Shown: positions 52,611 to 64,000, counted from the first letter of the stretch. The stretch is 64,000 nt of DNA from Candidatus Heimdallarchaeota archaeon (GCA_020353515.1 CP070695.1:633722-697721), one strand, 5' to 3'. Program-made: numbers and translations. Notes: generated from the letters alone by a model not told the origin.

Positions 52611-53561
52611 TTGTCAGTGTCAAGTATATTGCGAAGAATATTCAAAGGCAAGACAGTCGAGAAATATGAAATAACTATTGTAGGCCTCGACGGCGCTGGA
52701 AAAACCACAATTGTGAATCGGTTATTACGCTCTGAATTTGTTCCTACAACACGAACTCTGGGTGTTAACTACCGAACTGTGAAATATCGGCAGATTGAGT
52801 TCAACTTAGTTGATTTAGGTGGACAAGAAATTTATCGGAACCTTCTCTGGTATGATTCTTTAGAAAAGGCTTCAGCTATCGTTTTTGTGTTGGATAGTGC
52901 GGATCTTCGTCTTACAGAAGCATCGAACGCGTTTTGGGACTCAATCCAACGAAATGAGAAAGTACCTGTCCTTTTTATTGCTAATAAAATAGACCTGCCA
53001 GGTGCTAGAGCATTTGACCTCATCGTCCAGGATCTTGATTTACCACGAGCACAAAGATCTGCGAGGCCAGTGGGCCTCTTTCGAATCTCTGCAAAAACTG
53101 GAGAGAACTTCTACGACGCGTTTGATTGGGTAGCCGATGTTCTCACAGGAGAAGAATCCACATTTAAATGTAAAGTACGTGTTGTGATTTTAATAAATCT
53201 CGAGTCTCACCAGATATATACAACTAAGTTTACAAACATAGACCGCTCTATTCTGGATCAATTAAATATGGGTATTAGTGAAACTGTAAAAGAGTTATCT
53301 AAGAACCTAACTGGGATGGAAGTAATTACTGCGTCTGATCTCCAGCTCACTATTGTGAAAAACCATCCTTTAGTGATTGGGCTTATAATTGGTTACTCAG
53401 ATTCTGTCGTACGGGCTAAACTCATTGCTGAAAGATTATTGAAAACAGCTTCAGCGTCAATTGAAATTGATCAATTTGATTCACGTGTTTTACTAAAATT
53501 AATGAAGAAACAGTGGCCCCTAGACATCTATAAACCAAAAATCCAATTTGAAATTGATTAG
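52611..53561 (+). CDS. Arf-like small GTPase with C-terminal longin/roadblock-like domain
   Basis: GLDGAGKT, TRTLGVN, DLGGQ..YR, FVLDSAD, NKID, ISAKTG; ~130-aa extra C-terminal alpha/beta domain. Confidence 0.88.
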   Translation: MSVSSILRRIFKGKTVEKYEITIVGLDGAGKTTIVNRLLRSEFVPTTRTLGVNYRTVKYRQIEFNLVDLGGQEIYRNLLWYDSLEKASAIVFVLDSADLRLTEASNAFWDSIQRNEKVPVLFIANKIDLPGARAFDLIVQDLDLPRAQRSARPVGLFRISAKTGENFYDAFDWVADVLTGEESTFKCKVRVVILINLESHQIYTTKFTNIDRSILDQLNMGISETVKELSKNLTGMEVITASDLQLTIVKNHPLVIGLIIGYSDSVVRAKLIAERLLKTASASIEIDQFDSRVLLKLMKKQWPLDIYKPKIQFEID

Positions 53562-53573
53562 AAGTAAAAATTA

Positions 53574-55880
53574 CTAAAGATAATCTTTTAATCCTAAAAT
53601 ATCTTTTTTTCCGATTTCTGATTTACCTAAAAGCTTACGTTCTAACTCTATAAACTCTTTAATGATTCTATCATTGATACTAGGATGAACAGCTTTTTTA
53701 GCTTCATGAAAATGACGGAGTTCAATTAAATCTGCGTTTAAGTCTTCACGGAGAGCAATCATTACTGCTTCGCGGCATATTGCCGCGATATCAGCACCTA
53801 CATAACCTTCTAAGTCACTTGCGAGTTGAGAAAGATCTACATCAGTTCCTAACTTCATTCCATTTGTATGAATCTTTAGAATCTTTTTCCGAGATTCCAT
53901 ATCTGGTGGTTTCACTAGAAGTAGCCGATCAAATCTTCCTGGTCGGAGAAGGGCTGGGTCAATCATATCGGGCCGATTACTTGCCCCTAAGACCATAACA
54001 TCACGAAGACTCTCTAAGCCGTCTAGCAATGATAATATTTGGTTCACTACGCTTTCCGTGACATGACTTCCACCTGCAAAAGCCCCTCGACGGGGAGCGA
54101 TAGCGTCAAGCTCATCCAGAAATATAATAGAAGGGGAAGCTTGTTTAGCTTTTCTAAAAACTTCCCGAACAGCTTTCTCACTCTCACCAACCCACTTTGA
54201 TAATAATTCAGGCCCTCTAATGGCTATGAAATTTGCTTGGCTTTCAGTGGCAACTGCTTTAGCTAAAAGGGTTTTTCCAGTACCAGGGGGTCCATAAAGA
54301 AGAATACCATGAGGAGGTGTGACACCATGACGTTGAAAAATCTCAGGATGAACTATAGGCCACTCTACAGCCTCAATAAGTTGTTGTTTTACTGTTTCTA
54401 GGCCACCAATGTCATCCCAATGAATATTTGGAATTTCAAGGAGTACTTCTCGCATTGCTGATGGTTCTGTTATCTTGAGTGCTTCATCAAAATTCTCTTT
54501 AGACACAACTAGTTTTGAAAGAATCTCGGGCGTAAGAGGCTTGTCAAAATCTATTCTAGGTAAGACCTTTCGGAGAGTATGCATTGCAGCCTCTTTTGTA
54601 AGAGCAGCAATATCTGCTCCAACAAATCCGTGAGTTTTTGCTGCGTATTCATTTAGATCGACATCATCTGCTAAAGGCATCCCTCTAGTGTGAACTAATA
54701 GCACCTCATAACGACCATTTTTATCAGGAACCCCAATTTCAATTTCCCTATCAAATCGGCCAGGTCTACGTAAAGCGGGATCAAGAGCATTAGGTCGATT
54801 CGTCGCTCCGATTACTATTACTTTACCACGGCTCTTTAATCCATCCATTAATGCGAGAAGTTGGGCTACAACACGTCTTTCAACCTCTCCAGTCACCTCC
54901 TCACGTTTTACAGCGATAGAATCCAACTCATCAATAAAAATAATGCTAGGTGCCTCTTTTTCCGCATTTTGGAAAATTTCACGAATACGCTGTTCGCTCT
55001 CTCCATAGAATTTTGACATAATTTCTGGTCCAGCTATTGAAACAAAATTGACACCAGATTCATTTGCAACAGCTTTTGCAAGTAAGGTTTTTCCTGTTCC
55101 AGGAGGACCATGTAATAATACACCTTTAGGGGGGTCAATCCCTAAACGCTCAAAGAGTTGGGGGTGTTTCATTGGAAGTTCTATCATCTCCCTAACTCTT
55201 TTAATTTCTTCTGACAGCCCACCAATATCCTCATAGGTCACACGTGGCATCATTCGAAGATCTTTAGGTGCTTCCTCTACAATTTTAACTTCCGTTGTAT
55301 CACCTACAGTTACAATGCCATCAGGATCCGTTGCTACAACCACAACCTTAATTTCACCTAAAGAAACAGGACTCGTTGCACCAAAAAAACGAGATATAAA
55401 ATCATCCATTCCTGTTCCTGTAGTACCTCCTCCAGAGGGAGGAATCTTACGAATTTGCCCTGTAATAACTAGTAAATCTCCACGGGAAACAGGATGGTTT
55501 TGTAAACGTTCACGTATGATCTCTGATCTTACTAAAAGGCGAATTCTTTCTTCTGCAGGAGCAATCGTGATGCGTTTTGCTTCCCGTTTTTTAATTTTCC
55601 TGATTCGAACTGTTTCACCTAAGCTTGTTCCCACATTACCGCGAATCAACCCATCCATTCGAATGATATTTTTCCCCCGATCTTCTCTTCTTCCAGGTAT
55701 GACTAAAGCACCTGTTTTTTTTCCTCCTGCCCTCTCACTGGCGATTTCCACAATATCACCAGTTTCTAATCCATTCTCCCGCATGATAGAGTAATCAACT
55801 CTAACTAATCCTCGGCCAACATCACCTTGATTGGCTTCAACTACTTTTAAAAGTAGGTCCTTCTCATTATCATCTGTCAT
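53574..55880 (-). CDS. cdc48: CDC48/VCP-family AAA+ ATPase
   Basis: N-domain, two AAA modules (GPPGTGKT twice, DELD, RPGRFDR). Confidence 0.97.
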   Translation of the reverse strand: MTDDNEKDLLLKVVEANQGDVGRGLVRVDYSIMRENGLETGDIVEIASERAGGKKTGALVIPGRREDRGKNIIRMDGLIRGNVGTSLGETVRIRKIKKREAKRITIAPAEERIRLLVRSEIIRERLQNHPVSRGDLLVITGQIRKIPPSGGGTTGTGMDDFISRFFGATSPVSLGEIKVVVVATDPDGIVTVGDTTEVKIVEEAPKDLRMMPRVTYEDIGGLSEEIKRVREMIELPMKHPQLFERLGIDPPKGVLLHGPPGTGKTLLAKAVANESGVNFVSIAGPEIMSKFYGESEQRIREIFQNAEKEAPSIIFIDELDSIAVKREEVTGEVERRVVAQLLALMDGLKSRGKVIVIGATNRPNALDPALRRPGRFDREIEIGVPDKNGRYEVLLVHTRGMPLADDVDLNEYAAKTHGFVGADIAALTKEAAMHTLRKVLPRIDFDKPLTPEILSKLVVSKENFDEALKITEPSAMREVLLEIPNIHWDDIGGLETVKQQLIEAVEWPIVHPEIFQRHGVTPPHGILLYGPPGTGKTLLAKAVATESQANFIAIRGPELLSKWVGESEKAVREVFRKAKQASPSIIFLDELDAIAPRRGAFAGGSHVTESVVNQILSLLDGLESLRDVMVLGASNRPDMIDPALLRPGRFDRLLLVKPPDMESRKKILKIHTNGMKLGTDVDLSQLASDLEGYVGADIAAICREAVMIALREDLNADLIELRHFHEAKKAVHPSINDRIIKEFIELERKLLGKSEIGKKDILGLKDYL

Positions 55881-57126: not shown

Positions 57127-60100
57127 ATGCTTGTTAATATGGCCTCGGAAGGAAAACTTCTGGTTTCGAAGGAAGTTCTTCATAAAATTAGAGATTTAGT
57201 GACTGAACTACGCTCAATTGACCCTACAGTGCAAGTCGTCTCCGCTTTAAATGAAGCTCAAAAATTAGTGATAGAAATTGAAAAATTAGAGATAGCTTTA
57301 CCTAAAGCTGGATTTTTTAAAAAGAGGGGAATTAGAAAAACTCTTACTCAGGATAGAGAAAAGTACAATAAGCTTACCGAGGAGTTACTTAACGCTCTTT
57401 TAGTTGGATTTCGTAAGATTTACTTTGATCTAGCAAACAACATCAAAGAAATAGCTAAGTTTATCCCCCAAGAAACGGAGACTATACGGAAACTACAGAT
57501 CCCGAGTTTTGATGTGAACGAAATTCTGAGGTTTAGTTCGAATGTTCTGAGAACATATAATCAGATTTCCGAGGTTCTACGAGGAAAAAATGTTTCAATC
57601 TTATTATTTAATCGTGAAATAATCGAGCTATATGGAAAATTTGTCAATTTTGATGAAGAAAAGGTTCGGGCAACTAATCAAACAACAAAAACTAGTATCC
57701 ATGTGATGACAATTCCAGATTTACTTGAAGTTTATAGTATGCTGGAAGCTGAAAATGCGTATCTAAAACAACGAAGGAAGGGTACAGAGGGTAAAATTCA
57801 ACTGGCAATTGTTCAAATGTCCTCTGAGCTGCAACAGCATATTGATACTGTTGCATCAATTGGTTTAGATCTTTGGAGCAAAATTGATATATTGAAAGAG
57901 GAAGTCCAAGATATTCAAACCAATGCGGACAGAACTACCTCAGTAGAAACTCTCATCTCATTAGAAAAGCGGTTAAATTCTCTAAGTAATGAATTCATCA
58001 ACATGTTACGAACCTATGAGATATCCCTTAAGACAGAAACAGAGGATCAAATTGGACGCATAATACAAATTTTTGGAAAAGAAGGATTAGAATCAGCTTT
58101 TTCCCCAGTTCCAGAAACAGATATTTCATCTACTAGTATCCCAACCATAATCCAAGATATCGAAAAAATACGTTCTTGGCGCCAACAACAGATTATTGCT
58201 ACAAAGAAAATCCTAAGTACGTCAGAGTTAGTTAATTCATCTAAAGCTATACGTGCGATGAAGATACCAGTTCCTCAAGATTTTGTGAAGAATGTACGTA
58301 CGATTGAGAAAGAAGCAGCAAAAACAAGCGATCTACAAGAGTGGGTAGAATTAGCAAAGCGTTATTATGACTTGAAATCATCTCTAGCTGAAGAATGTCA
58401 AAACTATTTCTTTAGGCTACTTGAAAATCCACATATTCAAGAGGTCATTAACTTAAGTGAAGGGCCTCAAATTCCAACCATTCGCGATTTTGAAGCTCTC
58501 AGTCCCAGTGAATTGAGTACTAAAGCTCGTGAAATAAAAGATTGGGAGACCCGTTTGGTTGCATATTTCTCAAAGCCAGCTCAACAAAGTCTTAGACAAA
58601 ATTTGTTAAATCTATATGATTCCCGTGAAAGTTTACGAGACATCTTATCTGAAGACCTAAAAACTCAAATCGATTATCAAAGAAAGCAGAAAATTGCCGA
58701 AGAAATTGATATACGCGATTTAGTTCATGAGATTGAAGGTCTACATAGACTTAATTCAAATATAAAAACTGAACTTTGGAACAAAATAGACAATGAAATA
58801 CATCCTATTTACAATCAACTAACTAATCTCGAAACAATTCCCCCAAAACTAAAGGTACATGTCCCAATTCTAGCAATAGACGATTTAAAATCCTTCCGAG
58901 AAGAGGTTGGTGAGGCAGCTCAAAAAAGTACTCAGGAGCTCTTAGATGAGTACGAAAAAATTCCCCTCTGGAAATATAAGATTTCATCACGGATTCGTGA
59001 AAATTTGAAATCAATACCCTTTCCACTAATTCCTGTAGAGACACGTTTCGATTTGAGGGAAAAGCGTAACCAAATTGTGGAACTTATTGATGAATATTCA
59101 GAATTAGGAAATATAGAGGCTGTAATTAAAGAATATATCTCCTTTTTAGAAACGATTGAAGAGAATAAGAAAGAAATTCTTATCGAATTGAAAAAACAAA
59201 TCGGAAATCTAGAAGGAGTCGATAGAAGATTATTTAGATTACTAAAATCTCGAAAGACCAGTTTAATTTATTCTACTGATAAAGAAATCGATGGACTTGA
59301 TTATTCCGAAGCTCTAACAGAATTTTGGCAATTATCAGCTTTTATCGATCGGAAAGCATCTACATTAGCAGAACAAATGGAACGTGAAATTTCCTCTCAT
59401 ATTCAGGACTATTCAAAGCTTCCTATTCAGTATGCAGGTTTTTTTGATGAAACTTTGGATCTTATGAAAGAAAAGATGGATGAAATCAAAACTCATAAAG
59501 ATATTGTTCGTTTAGTCAATGTTTTTGAGAGTTACAGCTTGGAAAGCTTACAGATGTCAAAAGATTCCTTAGCTAAACTTCATCAGAATCTCTATAACTG
59601 GTTAAGAGTTAGTCTTCCGAGGATAAACGAAATAACACCTCTTGATGATACTATTTTTAGCGCAGAGAAGAAAGTTGCCGATTTTGAGGCTGAAGAAGTC
59701 TCTCATGAACGATTAGCTCATAAATTAAGACAGCTGATTTTCCTCTATGATACAGAAATATTATCTGTCTTGCTGACACATGGAGTACAAGAATCACGAA
59801 GGGTTCTGAAAAATGTTAATGATTTGAAAGAAGTCGGTATCAATATCATTGAGTTTGTTGGAGGGTATATTGAAAATTTTAGTCAAATAATTGTCAAAAA
59901 CCAAGAAGATGTTCAATTACGAGAAATCACAGATGTTTTTGTCGAGATTGATAATTTACAGACTGATCCCAAAGCTTGTCGCGAAATTCGTTCAATGGGA
60001 AAACGATATATTACTGAAATTCAAGATTCCGTTGAATATCTATTTAATCATTATCAAATTGATTTACGTCAGGATGAACGGGTTGATCTTGCATACCTAA

Positions 60101-60642
60101 GTCAGTTTCAAGAAATAGCAACAACTGATCATGTTAGTCGTTTAACTGAAGCAATTCTCAGACTAGTAGCAGTGAGAAGTTCTGTAATTGAGATCATGAA
60201 AACAATTGAAAAAAGTCGAAATGCATCCTTGCAAACTGAATTAGGGGAGTTAGAATACTATTCTAACATTCAAGAAGTGTTTAAGAGATATACTGAAGAA
60301 GCTTCAAAGAAGATATTTCCTTTATCTGAGTTAGTAAAAGCTCGTGAGGAATTTCTTGATTCTCATGATCTTAGATATATATTGGAGTTATTACCACAAA
60401 TAGATGAACAAAGAAATGAGTGGAAAAAAGTATCAATCCAGCTAAATCATTGGCACCGTGCAGTTCGAATGTTTCGGCCACGATATACACCAACAGAAAG
60501 TAGAGAAGAGAATTTACGGTTTTACAAAGAAATATCGAAGAAAATTAAAGAAACATATCCTCACAACGAAGTAATTCGTTCATATTTGAGCTTAGTTATG
60601 AAATTACTTATTGAAATTAAATCTGGAATTAAATTGGATTAA
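57127..60642 (+). CDS. Large (1171 aa) all-alpha repeat/rod protein of unknown function
   Basis: E/K/L/I-rich amphipathic helices; recurring ~120-140-aa unit; no NTPase, TM or signal motifs seen. Confidence 0.8.
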   Translation: MLVNMASEGKLLVSKEVLHKIRDLVTELRSIDPTVQVVSALNEAQKLVIEIEKLEIALPKAGFFKKRGIRKTLTQDREKYNKLTEELLNALLVGFRKIYFDLANNIKEIAKFIPQETETIRKLQIPSFDVNEILRFSSNVLRTYNQISEVLRGKNVSILLFNREIIELYGKFVNFDEEKVRATNQTTKTSIHVMTIPDLLEVYSMLEAENAYLKQRRKGTEGKIQLAIVQMSSELQQHIDTVASIGLDLWSKIDILKEEVQDIQTNADRTTSVETLISLEKRLNSLSNEFINMLRTYEISLKTETEDQIGRIIQIFGKEGLESAFSPVPETDISSTSIPTIIQDIEKIRSWRQQQIIATKKILSTSELVNSSKAIRAMKIPVPQDFVKNVRTIEKEAAKTSDLQEWVELAKRYYDLKSSLAEECQNYFFRLLENPHIQEVINLSEGPQIPTIRDFEALSPSELSTKAREIKDWETRLVAYFSKPAQQSLRQNLLNLYDSRESLRDILSEDLKTQIDYQRKQKIAEEIDIRDLVHEIEGLHRLNSNIKTELWNKIDNEIHPIYNQLTNLETIPPKLKVHVPILAIDDLKSFREEVGEAAQKSTQELLDEYEKIPLWKYKISSRIRENLKSIPFPLIPVETRFDLREKRNQIVELIDEYSELGNIEAVIKEYISFLETIEENKKEILIELKKQIGNLEGVDRRLFRLLKSRKTSLIYSTDKEIDGLDYSEALTEFWQLSAFIDRKASTLAEQMEREISSHIQDYSKLPIQYAGFFDETLDLMKEKMDEIKTHKDIVRLVNVFESYSLESLQMSKDSLAKLHQNLYNWLRVSLPRINEITPLDDTIFSAEKKVADFEAEEVSHERLAHKLRQLIFLYDTEILSVLLTHGVQESRRVLKNVNDLKEVGINIIEFVGGYIENFSQIIVKNQEDVQLREITDVFVEIDNLQTDPKACREIRSMGKRYITEIQDSVEYLFNHYQIDLRQDERVDLAYLSQFQEIATTDHVSRLTEAILRLVAVRSSVIEIMKTIEKSRNASLQTELGELEYYSNIQEVFKRYTEEASKKIFPLSELVKAREEFLDSHDLRYILELLPQIDEQRNEWKKVSIQLNHWHRAVRMFRPRYTPTESREENLRFYKEISKKIKETYPHNEVIRSYLSLVMKLLIEIKSGIKLD

Positions 60643-60681
60643 CATTTCCTTACAAATAAACGATAAAAAGAGCGTGTCAAA

Positions 60682-62052
60682 ATGTCAATTGAAGGAGGAC
60701 CAGAATCAGAGATCTTTGCAATTGGGATTGGTGAATGTGGCAGTAATCTCCTTGGGAGCTACCTAGCCAGATCTAAAAAAGGTGAGTTGCCTCAACGTAT
60801 TAGAGAATATCTAGTACTGAACACTGATAAAGGTGATTTACTGAAAGCCCGAAAAAAATATTCTATTTCAAAGAACCGAACCCTTCTCTATTCAGATGCA
60901 GAAATTGGAGTTGGGGGTAAGTTCTCAGCTGGTTATGAATCTGTAATAAACTCTCAGGACATTATTTTAAACCAGTTACAAGGGTTAGGTTATGAAGGAA
61001 TTAGTGGATTTTGTATATTTACAAGCTTTGGGGGAGGTACTGGATGTGGGGGAACACCTGCATTAATACAATTATTAAGAAAACGATTTGCTGAAGAAGA
61101 AAAACGTAAAATCTTCATATACGTCTTTGGGGTCTTACCTTTCGTTAATCAGTCATCTGAAGCAGTTAATAGCGTCTGGGCTTTGTCGAAATTACTTAGA
61201 CTTCAGCTCGAGGAAGGAAATATGGGACCAGATCTGATACTTCTTCTTTCTAATAGAACCATGCTTGAAAGGGTTTTAAGCTGGCAACGTGGGGAATCTG
61301 TCGATCTTTTGAGTCGCCAAATAGGAAAAGATTTAGCTGACTTAAGTAGTGAACAGGTAAGTTCTAGTATTCCCACAGTTATCGGTCAAGATGGAACAAC
61401 TTATCCAACCCAACTGGAAGAGGCTTTTGTTGAACTGGTTAATCCTCTAGCTTTGGAATCAATAGCTGAAATGTTATCACCTGGAGTACCAGAAGTTGGA
61501 AAGGAGGTTCTACCCACTACGGATATTGGTGACTTTGCGCTAAAATTAGATAGTGTCGTTGTACCTGCTATGTTTGATGATTTATCCGTTTTCCCAGAAA
61601 TCGGAGGGATGGATTCTCAGCTTTCAACTGCTGTAGAATATACTCTTTCTAATTGTAGCTTAACGGATATGGGAACGAACCCAACTGCATCATCTGTTTT
61701 CTCAGTACTAAGCGGCCCCCGTAACATTGCGCGAGTAGAATATGATCCCCTTTTGAAAAAAGCATTGGCTCCTTTTCTAGCAAAAGGTGCGAGTATTTCT
61801 CCTACTTATTGTGCTTATGATGATGATAGCACACGAGCATCTCTTCTTCTTTTGTTTGGTCTGCCAAAAATTCCAGAACTTCATGATATTCTTGAAGAAG
61901 CTAAAGCACTCATTAATCTTCATAGTGGGGACTCTGAATTGAAACAACACTGGTTTAAACGTTCAAAAGGTACAACGCGAAAAGAACTTGATGAGGCCGT
62001 AAATGATCTGGAAAAATTATTCGGTTACTATATAAAACCAGAAAAAGGATAA
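60682..62052 (+). CDS. Tubulin/FtsZ-superfamily GTPase (divergent, CetZ/tubulin-like)
   Basis: IGIGECGSN (T1), LNTD (T2), GVGG (T3), SFGGGTGCG (T4), VLPF (T5), LLSN (T6), TTDIGDF (T7-like DxxD). Confidence 0.92.
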   Translation: MSIEGGPESEIFAIGIGECGSNLLGSYLARSKKGELPQRIREYLVLNTDKGDLLKARKKYSISKNRTLLYSDAEIGVGGKFSAGYESVINSQDIILNQLQGLGYEGISGFCIFTSFGGGTGCGGTPALIQLLRKRFAEEEKRKIFIYVFGVLPFVNQSSEAVNSVWALSKLLRLQLEEGNMGPDLILLLSNRTMLERVLSWQRGESVDLLSRQIGKDLADLSSEQVSSSIPTVIGQDGTTYPTQLEEAFVELVNPLALESIAEMLSPGVPEVGKEVLPTTDIGDFALKLDSVVVPAMFDDLSVFPEIGGMDSQLSTAVEYTLSNCSLTDMGTNPTASSVFSVLSGPRNIARVEYDPLLKKALAPFLAKGASISPTYCAYDDDSTRASLLLLFGLPKIPELHDILEEAKALINLHSGDSELKQHWFKRSKGTTRKELDEAVNDLEKLFGYYIKPEKG

Positions 62053-62066
62053 GGTGCTAGATCAAA

Positions 62067-63146
62067 TTGGATAGAAGAGATCCGTCAAGGTTTGATTATA
62101 CCCAAAAGCGCTCAGCTTCTAACGAATCTATAGAAAGGCAACAAGACACAAAACAAGATCAAGTCGAGCGTAAAATCATTTCTTCAGATTTTTGGACATC
62201 CAGAGGAAACATGGGCGAGAAGATTAACATCTTAATTGGATTGAATCTTCAACTTATTAACATAATTTCCTCTTTAGTCCAAATACTAAGTAGAGAAAAT
62301 ACTCTAAGTGAAGATATGAGAATAAGTTTAGAAATGACTAAGGAATTCCTTTCCAAAATAACCATACAGCCCGATTCAGGTTTGGAAATTTTAAAAAATC
62401 TCGAAACAATTGACACTAAAGTGACTACATTAATGGAGGGACTTAATACTGGAGTGTCACCGATAGCTATTGAAAAAGAACCCCAGGATGCTCCAGAAAA
62501 GATTTTTGGTTTTTTTCAACGAAATGCGGTCTATCTTGATAAATGGGGAATAATTGATTCTATTGATAACCTACAAGCCTCTTACTCGAACTTATCTCAC
62601 TTGGGTTTTCCTAATTACTATTCTTCTGCTTGTAGAGAATTACATCGTTATGAGATCCAACAAAATGCTCCTTTTTATAGCCAGTCTGAAATTATACAAC
62701 TTCCTTCTTTTAAACTCAGAGACCTTATAAGTAAGCTTCTACGAGAAGCGCCCGCCGCTCGGTTACTGCAAAATCTTCGTAAAATATTTCCTGCAGAACA
62801 TGATTCAGCTCTTACATCAACAGAACAAGATAAAATCCAAAAAATAGTAGAAATGTACTATAAATGTATTTCAGAATATTTCAATGAAACTCGCAGCTTG
62901 CAGGATTCCCTCCGCATCTCATCAGGCATTCTAAAGAACTATAATCTAGGGACTGGAGACTTAGAATCGAGAATACCTAATGTCTCATTTAATATTGTGA
63001 AAGAAATCAGCTTAGACCTCCAAAATGCCAAAGATGATGAATTAAGAAGGTATATATTATCAGAAACTATCATCCTGATTCATCGATTGAATGATTCACT
63101 TTTACAGACAGAAAGATTTGTTCTCTTCTTGAGGCGTCTGAAATAA
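62067..63146 (+). CDS. Hypothetical helical protein, likely co-transcribed with the tubulin-like gene
   Basis: 359-aa ORF 14 nt after the tubulin-like stop; AAGGTG SD overlaps that stop. Confidence 0.75.
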   Translation: MDRRDPSRFDYTQKRSASNESIERQQDTKQDQVERKIISSDFWTSRGNMGEKINILIGLNLQLINIISSLVQILSRENTLSEDMRISLEMTKEFLSKITIQPDSGLEILKNLETIDTKVTTLMEGLNTGVSPIAIEKEPQDAPEKIFGFFQRNAVYLDKWGIIDSIDNLQASYSNLSHLGFPNYYSSACRELHRYEIQQNAPFYSQSEIIQLPSFKLRDLISKLLREAPAARLLQNLRKIFPAEHDSALTSTEQDKIQKIVEMYYKCISEYFNETRSLQDSLRISSGILKNYNLGTGDLESRIPNVSFNIVKEISLDLQNAKDDELRRYILSETIILIHRLNDSLLQTERFVLFLRRLK

Positions 63147-63156
63147 CTTTTTTTTT
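63147..63156 (+). terminator. Putative oligo-T terminator
   Basis: CTTTTTTTTT immediately after the stop of 62067..63146. Confidence 0.45.
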
Positions 63157-63236
63157 ATGTTTTAAGATATAATTAAAGATTTAAATTTCAGGTGTATTTT
63201 TGTTAAGAGTGAAGGAACTTCGTGTGAGGTAAGAAT

Positions 63237-64000
63237 ATGGGAATAGAAGATGGCATTAAAAATATACAGCAGATGACTTTGGAAAATAAGCAGTCACTCA
63301 ACAAAATTCAAGATTTTGTAAGCACACTTCAAGGAATTCAAGATCCTTCCCAATCAATCCAAAATCTCTCAATGGTACTATTGAATTTTGAAGAAAAACT
63401 CGAACAATCAAACGAAAAAATGAGAGGAGAAATGAACTCCATCCTTGAACTGGTTGATTCTTCACGGATAAGTACGGGTTTACAATCTTCAATTGAGAGT
63501 CTCCCCCAAATGATCTTGAGTCTTGAGGAATCCCTTGGAACTATTCTTAGTACGTTTGAGAAGACTTCTGAAGAGACAAAGAACGATTTGAAATTTATTA
63601 AGGTTAGTTATGTGGAAGATGTTGTTGGTAACATGCGTAATTTGTCTAAAGAAATTATAGATAAGGTGAATAGCTCCAACGACAGAACTACAGCCTTATA
63701 TGAAGCCAGTGTTGGCCACTTTGGGGAAATAGTGGAAAAATTGAATAACATTGAAAGCAGCTTAAATGCACTAGTTGAGAATCAAGCAGATCAATTAGCA
63801 ACTGTAGCAGATCTCAGGGATCGTGTTAGTGCAATTATTCAGGTAGAATTGGCATCACTGCGTGATCGTATTGCAATCTATCTAGAGACAACTATAAATG
63901 AGCTAAAAACATCAGTAACGGAACGGTTAGCCGTTCAAGATGGAACTCTTCAGAAATTAACAAAAGTAACAAAACAATTAACTCAGAATATTGCAGCCCT
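63237..64000 (+). CDS. Coiled-coil protein, 3'-truncated by the window end (not in the ORF track)
   Basis: Manual translation from ATG 63237 (GAGGT SD): MGIEDGIKNIQQMTLENKQSLNKIQDFVSTLQG..., open to base 64000, heptad-rich. Confidence 0.8.
   Translation, partial: MGIEDGIKNIQQMTLENKQSLNKIQDFVSTLQGIQDPSQSIQNLSMVLLNFEEKLEQSNEKMRGEMNSILELVDSSRISTGLQSSIESLPQMILSLEESLGTILSTFEKTSEETKNDLKFIKVSYVEDVVGNMRNLSKEIIDKVNSSNDRTTALYEASVGHFGEIVEKLNNIESSLNALVENQADQLATVADLRDRVSAIIQVELASLRDRIAIYLETTINELKTSVTERLAVQDGTLQKLTKVTKQLTQNIAA

Follow-up and report, generated by a model that had tools for sequence, protein, structure and literature searches.

The end of a 64,000-nucleotide stretch from the 4.94-Mb, single-contig genome of a Candidatus Heimdallarchaeota archaeon (C1:633722-697721, hereafter the window) encodes a tubulin-like GTPase, which we call TUB, together with an upstream gene, ROD, a third gene, PAR, and a fourth, CC. 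Our analysis reveals that the first three genes form an ancient module: an intact GTPase of the Asg.Tub clade, a helical-repeat ROD of variable length, and a smaller helical PAR have been passed on together, with their order unchanged, in six classes of Asgard archaea. The GTPase family already has a name; what is new with respect to the searchable literature is the three-gene module, the predicted architecture of ROD, and the probable likeness of the TUB C-terminus to the H11'-H12 segment of tubulins.

Conservation of the ROD-TUB-PAR module

The partners of TUB accompany it almost everywhere. Of the 82 TUB loci, 76 include ROD and 75 include PAR, the exceptions being contig ends, one insertion of ~10 kb, and a paralogous locus. 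The order ROD-TUB-PAR is the same in Hodarchaeales and in Thor-, Hermod-, Sif-, Baldr-, and Asgardarchaeia (the six classes), as well as in LC_3, and the flanks of the cassette are wholly different between Hodarchaeales and Thorarchaeia. Searches of 379 whole Asgard genomes retrieved TUB and PAR in 119 genomes each and ROD in 124. The three genes occupy one and the same set of nine families, and each is found in 32 of the 90 high-quality genomes; the carrier lists show both partners in 113 of the 119 TUB carriers. Related genomes are not independent of each other; the pattern spans six classes. Some 31% of the Asgard genomes sampled carry the module, and among the Hodarchaeaceae sampled, nearly all do.

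A first-pass annotation, made from the sequence of the window, had proposed a dedicated system of four genes. The occurrence of ROD and PAR across Asgard genomes bears this out for these two, which are dedicated and conserved companions of the GTPase, and not for CC, which turned up in a single genus. The loci with CC next to the cassette are 18 in number and all come from close Hodarchaeales, in which Cdc48, CinA, and the rest of the neighbourhood are equally syntenic. Used as a single query, the CC protein had matches in 17 of the 18 further genomes of this genus and in 0 of the remaining 313. CC is a genus-level neighbour outside the ancient module.

The genome carries a second ROD and TUB pair (C1:2897419-2902179), whose products are respectively 23% and 55% identical to the first; the two genes were co-duplicated within this genome. 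The second locus (C1:2897419-2903177) comprises a 311-amino acid (aa) gene, a 1140-aa ROD, and a 441-aa TUB, lacks PAR, adjoins two genes for Rag/Arf-like GTPases, and occurs in some genomes of this genus only (homologue L103). The 311-aa gene, upstream of the pair, has no detectable homology to PAR. Elsewhere, ROD and TUB are set apart by insertions in two genomes, by a 1202-aa gene that matches nothing in Pfam in one (L015:6154-9762) and by ~10 kb in the other (L016), so this junction can be interrupted.

Canonical FtsZ is encoded by one or two genes in all ten carriers checked, and by one in this genome. We considered Asg.Tub as a general replacement of an FtsZ paralogue and rejected the idea because carriers keep their canonical FtsZ. 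True tubulins were found in 8 of 400 Asgard genomes (~2%), none in a family carrying Asg.Tub, and are too rare for this separation to demonstrate exclusion. Tubulin_C (PF03953) has no match in this genome.

The GTPase and its relatives

The operon had been presented as a novel candidate, but its GTPase is not new: judged by its sequence, TUB is the already published Asg.Tub (Santana-Molina, del Saz-Navarro & Devos 2023, PMC9871819). It is 57% identical to the founder OLS26264.1 (P0070) and 83% to the B3_Heim protein PWI48967.1, and both fall within a single Asg.Tub clade (100/99) in our tree. The FtsZ and tubulin clades (100/100 each) both exclude TUB, CetZ is separate (100/99), and TUB also stands apart from the two TubZ sequences included. 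Asg.Tub falls together with true tubulins and Halo.Tub (97/91), without a firm order inside this group, and a similar grouping (99/97) remains once the C-terminal helices are removed. The approximately unbiased (AU) test rejects Asg.Tub and canonical CetZ as a single clade (p=0.0002). These trees have long branches and limited sampling, and include neither artubulin nor gamma, delta, or epsilon tubulins.

The Pfam Tubulin GTPase domain matches TUB well above the cut-off of 33 bits (Table 1), which places the protein in the tubulin/FtsZ superfamily; FtsZ_C and Tubulin_C have no match in it, and it reaches 29.7 bits against TIGR00065 (ftsZ), for which the cut-off is 295. Together with the separate canonical FtsZ of this genome, these data uphold the earlier proposal that TUB is distinct from division FtsZ, and the tree does the same for its distinctness from the alpha/beta-like Asgard tubulins. 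A nesting within canonical FtsZ or a characterised CetZ clade, set beforehand as the result that speaks against a separate system, was not seen.

The published account noted that Asg.Tub is unstable between CetZ and tubulins and has coiled-coil-containing neighbours of unidentified type (PMC9871819). We recover the same clade and the same kind of neighbours, and add to them the six classes, the fixed order, the repeat architecture of the rod, the paralogous pair, and the short H11'-H12 similarity. The earlier Asg.Tub alignment comprised four sequences, and the main text gave no function for Asg.Tub, defined no fixed three-gene module, and mentioned no C-terminal hidden Markov model match to tubulins (PMC9871819). 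The "CetZ-related Asgard archaeal clade" that serves as an outgroup in bioRxiv 10.64898/2026.02.15.705738 (PMC13394414 in its published form) is probably Asg.Tub as well. The available part of a preprint on a Hodarchaeales isolate mentions neither tubulin nor FtsZ.

Sequences of the TUB family are mostly 52-62% identical between Asgard lineages, and residue conservation was assessed in an alignment of 103 of them. The nucleotide-binding motifs and T7 aspartates are invariant (Table 1), as is the Ser-Asn of T6, and the Asn of the FtsZ T7 is usually a Thr in this family. The predicted insertion of ~45 aa after T6 is real: it measures 45 aa when TUB is compared with CetZ and ~41 aa when it is compared with beta-tubulin, and varies between 32 and 51 aa across the family.

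Equally real, by alignment and profile comparison, is the helical C-terminal extension that had been described in place of the FtsZ linker and tail. Beyond the last strand, TUB aligns nearly gap-free with H11, H11', and H12 of tubulin. In hhalign comparisons, this C-terminal piece scores 27 against tubulins (probability 74-90%) and at most 14 against CetZ, FtsZ, and Halo.Tub, while the controls reached maxima of 15 for shuffled sequences and 17.9 for natural helical decoys. The C-terminus of TUB is a probable, not a proven, tubulin-like H11'-H12 segment. In eukaryotic tubulin, the H11'-H12 surface binds microtubule-associated proteins (MAPs) and motors.

The best solved relatives of TUB are of CetZ type (3ZID, 4B46, 4B45, all with low scores), as are the best profile matches (full-length hhalign E 5e-24). 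TUB shares with Haloferax CetZ1/2 (Duggin et al. 2015; Brown & Duggin, PMC9856176) the NTD-type T2 loop, the GVG-type T3 loop, and a single subunit type, but it falls outside the canonical CetZ clade, has the H6-H7 insert, the probable extra H11'-H12 segment, and dedicated partners, and its M-loop region is short and lacks the hydrophobic insert of CetZ1. Halo.Tub gives an equally good full-length profile match (E 1.6e-24), also has Glu in T1, and is the sister of Asg.Tub in one tree (90/89, unstarred); it differs in being haloarchaeal, in having no H11'-H12 sequence match (score 9), and in its gene context (PMC9871819). OdinTubulin and AtubA/B/C (PMC8956254; PMC13394414; PMC13371889) are likewise Asgard proteins of the tubulin superfamily and have H11-H12, to which the TUB C-terminus probably corresponds; OdinTubulin is likewise a single gene between two helical-protein genes. 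Yet hhalign gives nothing significant between these neighbours and ROD or PAR (probability <=25%), and TUB lacks, besides the Tubulin_C match, the tubulin N-terminal insertions and the GAxNNW-type T3, and is present in other families and in a much larger share of Asgard genomes. From canonical FtsZ, TUB differs by the Asn to Thr change in T7, with both Asp kept, and by a helical C-terminus instead of linker and tail; from TubZRC, by a chromosomal cassette without plasmid match.

We also encountered other tubulin-family loci. Genes of OdinTubulin type (L242:6536-10940, L243, L244, L248) are sandwiched between two genes for helical proteins of ~480-545 aa. The closest outgroup of Asg.Tub, P0166 (L146:8001-10149), has GGGTGCG, a D-x-x-D T7, a shorter insert, and no rod upstream; the next gene encodes a 262-aa protein whose N-terminus is hydrophobic, and an SMC-ScpA pair lies ~3 kb away. 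In Heimdallarchaeia, very divergent genes of the superfamily (L152:481-4055, L153:3761-7702, L154:4639-7099, L155:318-4179) encode proteins of ~400-460 aa, some with basic/aromatic N-termini, are co-located in twos or threes, and form their own clade (100/99) away from Asg.Tub. They are possibly a separate, undescribed multi-gene system.

The helical partners and the locus

AlphaFold2 models ROD with helices only, at a mean predicted local distance difference test (pLDDT) of 84 and a predicted template-modelling score (pTM) of 0.39, which leaves the overall shape uncertain. The model suggests about 16 tandem three-helix bundles of ~65-70 aa each, placed end to end, with long helices that by eye begin roughly every 68 residues. 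Internal profile cross-hits of 20-33 bits point to a duplication unit (super-repeat) of ~130 aa, and the profile periodicity peaks at 130, 191, and 64 residues with modest z values (2.3-3.3). The length of ROD ranges from 873 to 1396 aa and changes in steps of roughly one repeat or several, with repeats gained or lost between lineages; ~275 residues that are extra relative to the Thorarchaeia ROD map to the repeated region.

At the tip of the first helical hairpin, in the turn between the helices at residues 38-57 and 63-104, ROD carries a patch of basic residues, joined in most cases by an aromatic one, in 17 of 17 sequences displayed, with all lineages represented; G62 and K66 are nearly invariant. 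This tip is a candidate membrane-contact site. ROD has no transmembrane helix (maximum KD19 1.3), nor do the other proteins of the module, so any contact with the membrane must be peripheral. Its end-to-end three-helix bundles, forming an elongated rod, resemble those of EzrA, spectrin, and FIVAR/DUF1542-type proteins, but the unit is shorter than in EzrA and spectrin and there is no transmembrane anchor; the likeness is one of architecture only. In the ESM Atlas, ROD has weak shape matches to FIVAR and DUF1542 proteins, with template-modelling (TM) scores of 0.2-0.35. Fold searches with the whole model, which bear on a homology with the repeats of spectrin, EzrA, or PRC1, gave generic helical bundles only.

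PAR is a soluble helical protein, modelled at a pLDDT of 76 with a disordered N-terminus, a low-confidence three-helix part (49-125), and a confident helical C-terminal domain (~145-359) that contains invariant residues around EAPxARLL. Here too the fold searches gave generic helical-bundle matches only. Matches to dynein, talin/vinculin, and gamma-TuRC, met in the searches with the two partners, had poor TM or Z scores and were rejected as chance; this outcome is no proof of new folds for either partner. Feature matches of PAR to type III secretion system gatekeepers in the ESM Atlas (0.76) stayed under the lead threshold. Pfam and NCBIfam give nothing over cut-off for ROD, PAR, or CC, which leaves ROD and PAR without a named family. 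The complex prediction for TUB and PAR scored 0.00, which is no verdict and counts as evidence neither way.

ROD, TUB, and PAR are co-directional, separated by gaps of 39 and 14 nucleotides (nt), and the coordinates, gaps, motif positions, and T9 run given in the first-pass annotation are all exact (Table 1). The T9 tract is present in this genome, but at least six T within 40 nt past PAR occur in only 7 of 73 homologous loci, and the tract is not conserved. A scan of the region for sigma-70-type promoters and terminators was uninformative, the host being archaeal, and no RNA holder is on record for the region. CC does run past the end of the window, its stop lying 130 nt outside it, head-on with a gene of the opposite strand, but it is not the long coiled-coil gene that had been described. 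The closest named homologues of the proteins of the window are from Hodarchaeales. Around the cassette, the chromosome carries housekeeping genes or genes of Asgard type (Arf-like GTPase, Cdc48, CinA-like, NTP transferase, RING); no plasmid or phage genes were recognised among them, in agreement with the earlier statement, and the cassette has no match among plasmids.

Table 1. Positions in the window of the genes of the cassette, their motifs, and the adjoining features
Feature	Position	Strand	Remarks
ROD	57127..60642	+	1171 aa; start possibly Met5
GFFKKR patch	57310..57327	+	tip of first helical hairpin of ROD
TUB	60682..62052	+	456-aa Asg.Tub tubulin-superfamily GTPase; Pfam PF00091, 64 bits
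T1 loop GECGSN	60730..60747	+	Glu where tubulin/CetZ carry Gln; G17, E18, G20 invariant in all ungapped rows of 103
T4 signature GGGTGCG	61030..61050	+	all seven residues invariant, 103/103
Insert between T6/H6 and H7	61279..61419 (boundaries approximate)	+	~45 aa; first half conserved, second half variable
T7 catalytic loop TTDIGDF	61516..61536	+	aligns to FtsZ NLDFADV; D281 and D284 invariant, 103/103
H11'-H12-like segment, HWF...KG...EL.EA..DL..LF.Y	61948..62031	+	W424, F425, K429, G430 invariant in all ungapped rows
PAR	62067..63146	+	359 aa; TTG start; soluble helical partner
T9 tract	63148..63156	+	possible archaeal terminator in this genome
CC	63237..64000 (end at window-equivalent 64130)	+	297-aa coiled-coil-like gene

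Further along the flanks, an Arf-family GTPase with a C-terminal extension of ~140 aa is convergent with a Cdc48/p97 gene (window 52611-55880), the pair being syntenic genus-wide. On the 3' side of CC, just outside the window, lie a longin-like gene, recognised by eye and without Pfam match (L001:8847-9587), and a gene for a RING-finger protein with a hydrophobic N-terminus (L001:10807-11793), both syntenic in the genus.

Possible roles of the module

The reading that we favour, to which we give somewhat less than an even chance, is that TUB forms a GTP-driven homopolymer tethered to the membrane by ROD, with a role in shape or organisation rather than in core division. TUB would bind GTP and polymerise head-to-tail, each active site being completed by T7 aspartates of the adjacent subunit, which is how FtsZ, CetZ, and OdinTubulin work. 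ROD might act as a spacer, of an estimated ~45-50 nm if extended (16 bundles at ~3 nm). Its basic-aromatic hairpin tip at the N-terminus would contact the membrane, and other parts of the rod would hold or cross-link filaments, with the outer H11'-H12 surface or the family-specific insert as the probable site. PAR could be soluble and serve as a regulator or adaptor that the second paralogue of Hodarchaeales has replaced or does without, and the job of the module may be cortical organisation or cell shape, alongside FtsZ and not in its place. A number of observations are in favour of this reading: 1) the conserved gene order amid unrelated flanks; 2) the shared phyletic pattern; 3) the co-duplication of ROD and TUB; 4) the invariant nucleotide-binding and T7 residues; 5) the tandem repeats of changing length and the conserved basic tip of ROD; 6) the scores of the H11'-H12 segment, above those of the controls; and 7) the retention of canonical FtsZ.

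Several points weigh against it. Gene linkage shows that a function is shared, not which one. The module is apparently absent from Lokiarchaeia and most other Heimdallarchaeia (lineage names inferred), and must be dispensable for the Asgard body plan. The Thr that replaces the Asn of the FtsZ NxDxxD motif leaves the rate of hydrolysis uncertain, and the H6-H7 insert could hinder simple polymerisation, since in tubulin the H6-H7 loop is close to the longitudinal interface. The H11'-H12 likeness is only probable, because the segment is short and was picked post hoc and because a search of the whole PDB with the profile of the TUB C-terminus did not retrieve tubulins. The searchable literature holds no other treatment or bench study of Asg.Tub.

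A bolder version, which we hold to be rather unlikely, sees in Asg.Tub a surviving sister lineage of tubulin with an H11'-H12 surface, and in ROD and PAR dedicated filament-associated proteins that use this surface, the one as a membrane tether or cross-linker of tunable length, the other as a regulator. Four rival roles are all unlikely. TUB and ROD might shape protrusions or vesicles, as proposed for FtsZ-like families with coiled-coil partners, and this is the least unlikely of the four: the conserved basic tip of the ROD hairpin fits such a role, and both Hodarchaeales copies lie near small GTPase genes, the first also near Cdc48. Yet these flanks are not conserved outside Hodarchaeales, TUB stays under the cut-off of Pfam Tubulin_2, and the family of the complete 6.04-Mb genome G131, which we take to be L. 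ossiferum, of a protrusion-making lineage, has no carriers among 14 genomes searched. Next in order, and quite unlikely, comes an accessory division system, in which ROD is EzrA-like and TUB co-assembles with the FtsZ ring or positions it. The tandem three-helix architecture of ROD recalls spectrin and EzrA, the latter a helical-repeat regulator of FtsZ, and the genomes of this genus combine one canonical FtsZ with one or two Asg.Tub; however, most carriers among Thor-, Sif-, Baldr-, and Asgardarchaeia have retained a pair of canonical FtsZ genes, repeats of spectrin or EzrA are of ~100 aa and not ~68, the FtsZ-type linker and tail are missing from TUB, and the cassette is not beside ftsZ in this genome.

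It is improbable, and somewhat more so than a part in division, that TUB stays a monomer or short oligomer on a helical scaffold and makes no long filaments, like a gamma-tubulin/GCP template or a GTP switch. Its large helical partner is near-obligate, the insert, close to the longitudinal interface, might block elongation, and ~55% identity across classes fits several binding surfaces; but both T7 aspartates are invariant, which is expected if subunits activate each other in a polymer, and no alpha/beta-type tubulin that TUB could nucleate was found in the carriers searched. Least probable of all is DNA segregation of TubZRC type with PAR or ROD as the DNA adaptor. TubZ systems also consist of a GTPase with small dedicated partners and have C-terminal helical extensions, and the tip of ROD is basic. 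Against this, the cassette is chromosomal, spread vertically, and without plasmid match, the two TubZ sequences of the tree branch apart from TUB, and no Pfam DNA-binding family was found among 59 PAR members, though a centromere-like repeat array was not searched for.

The membrane-tethered homopolymer and its alternatives are directly testable, as the module amounts to three soluble proteins from one operon, with versions from probably thermophilic Baldrarchaeia and with Hodarchaeales in culture. True tubulins have been reported in ~1% of Asgard genomes (PMC13394414). The module is far commoner by our counts (~31% against ~2%), and its carriers include Hodarchaeales, the order proposed to be closest to eukaryotes. 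Provided that they bind the filament, ROD and PAR would count as some of the first accessory proteins dedicated to a tubulin-family polymer of Asgard archaea, and would fill a gap in the account of how the microtubule cytoskeleton arose. Should Asg.Tub be a sister lineage of tubulin, and ROD and PAR its filament-associated proteins, the module would amount to a tubulin-plus-MAP system that is widespread in Asgard archaea, Hodarchaeales included, and far commoner than AtubAB, and would show interfaces between tubulin and its partners arising before eukaryotes.

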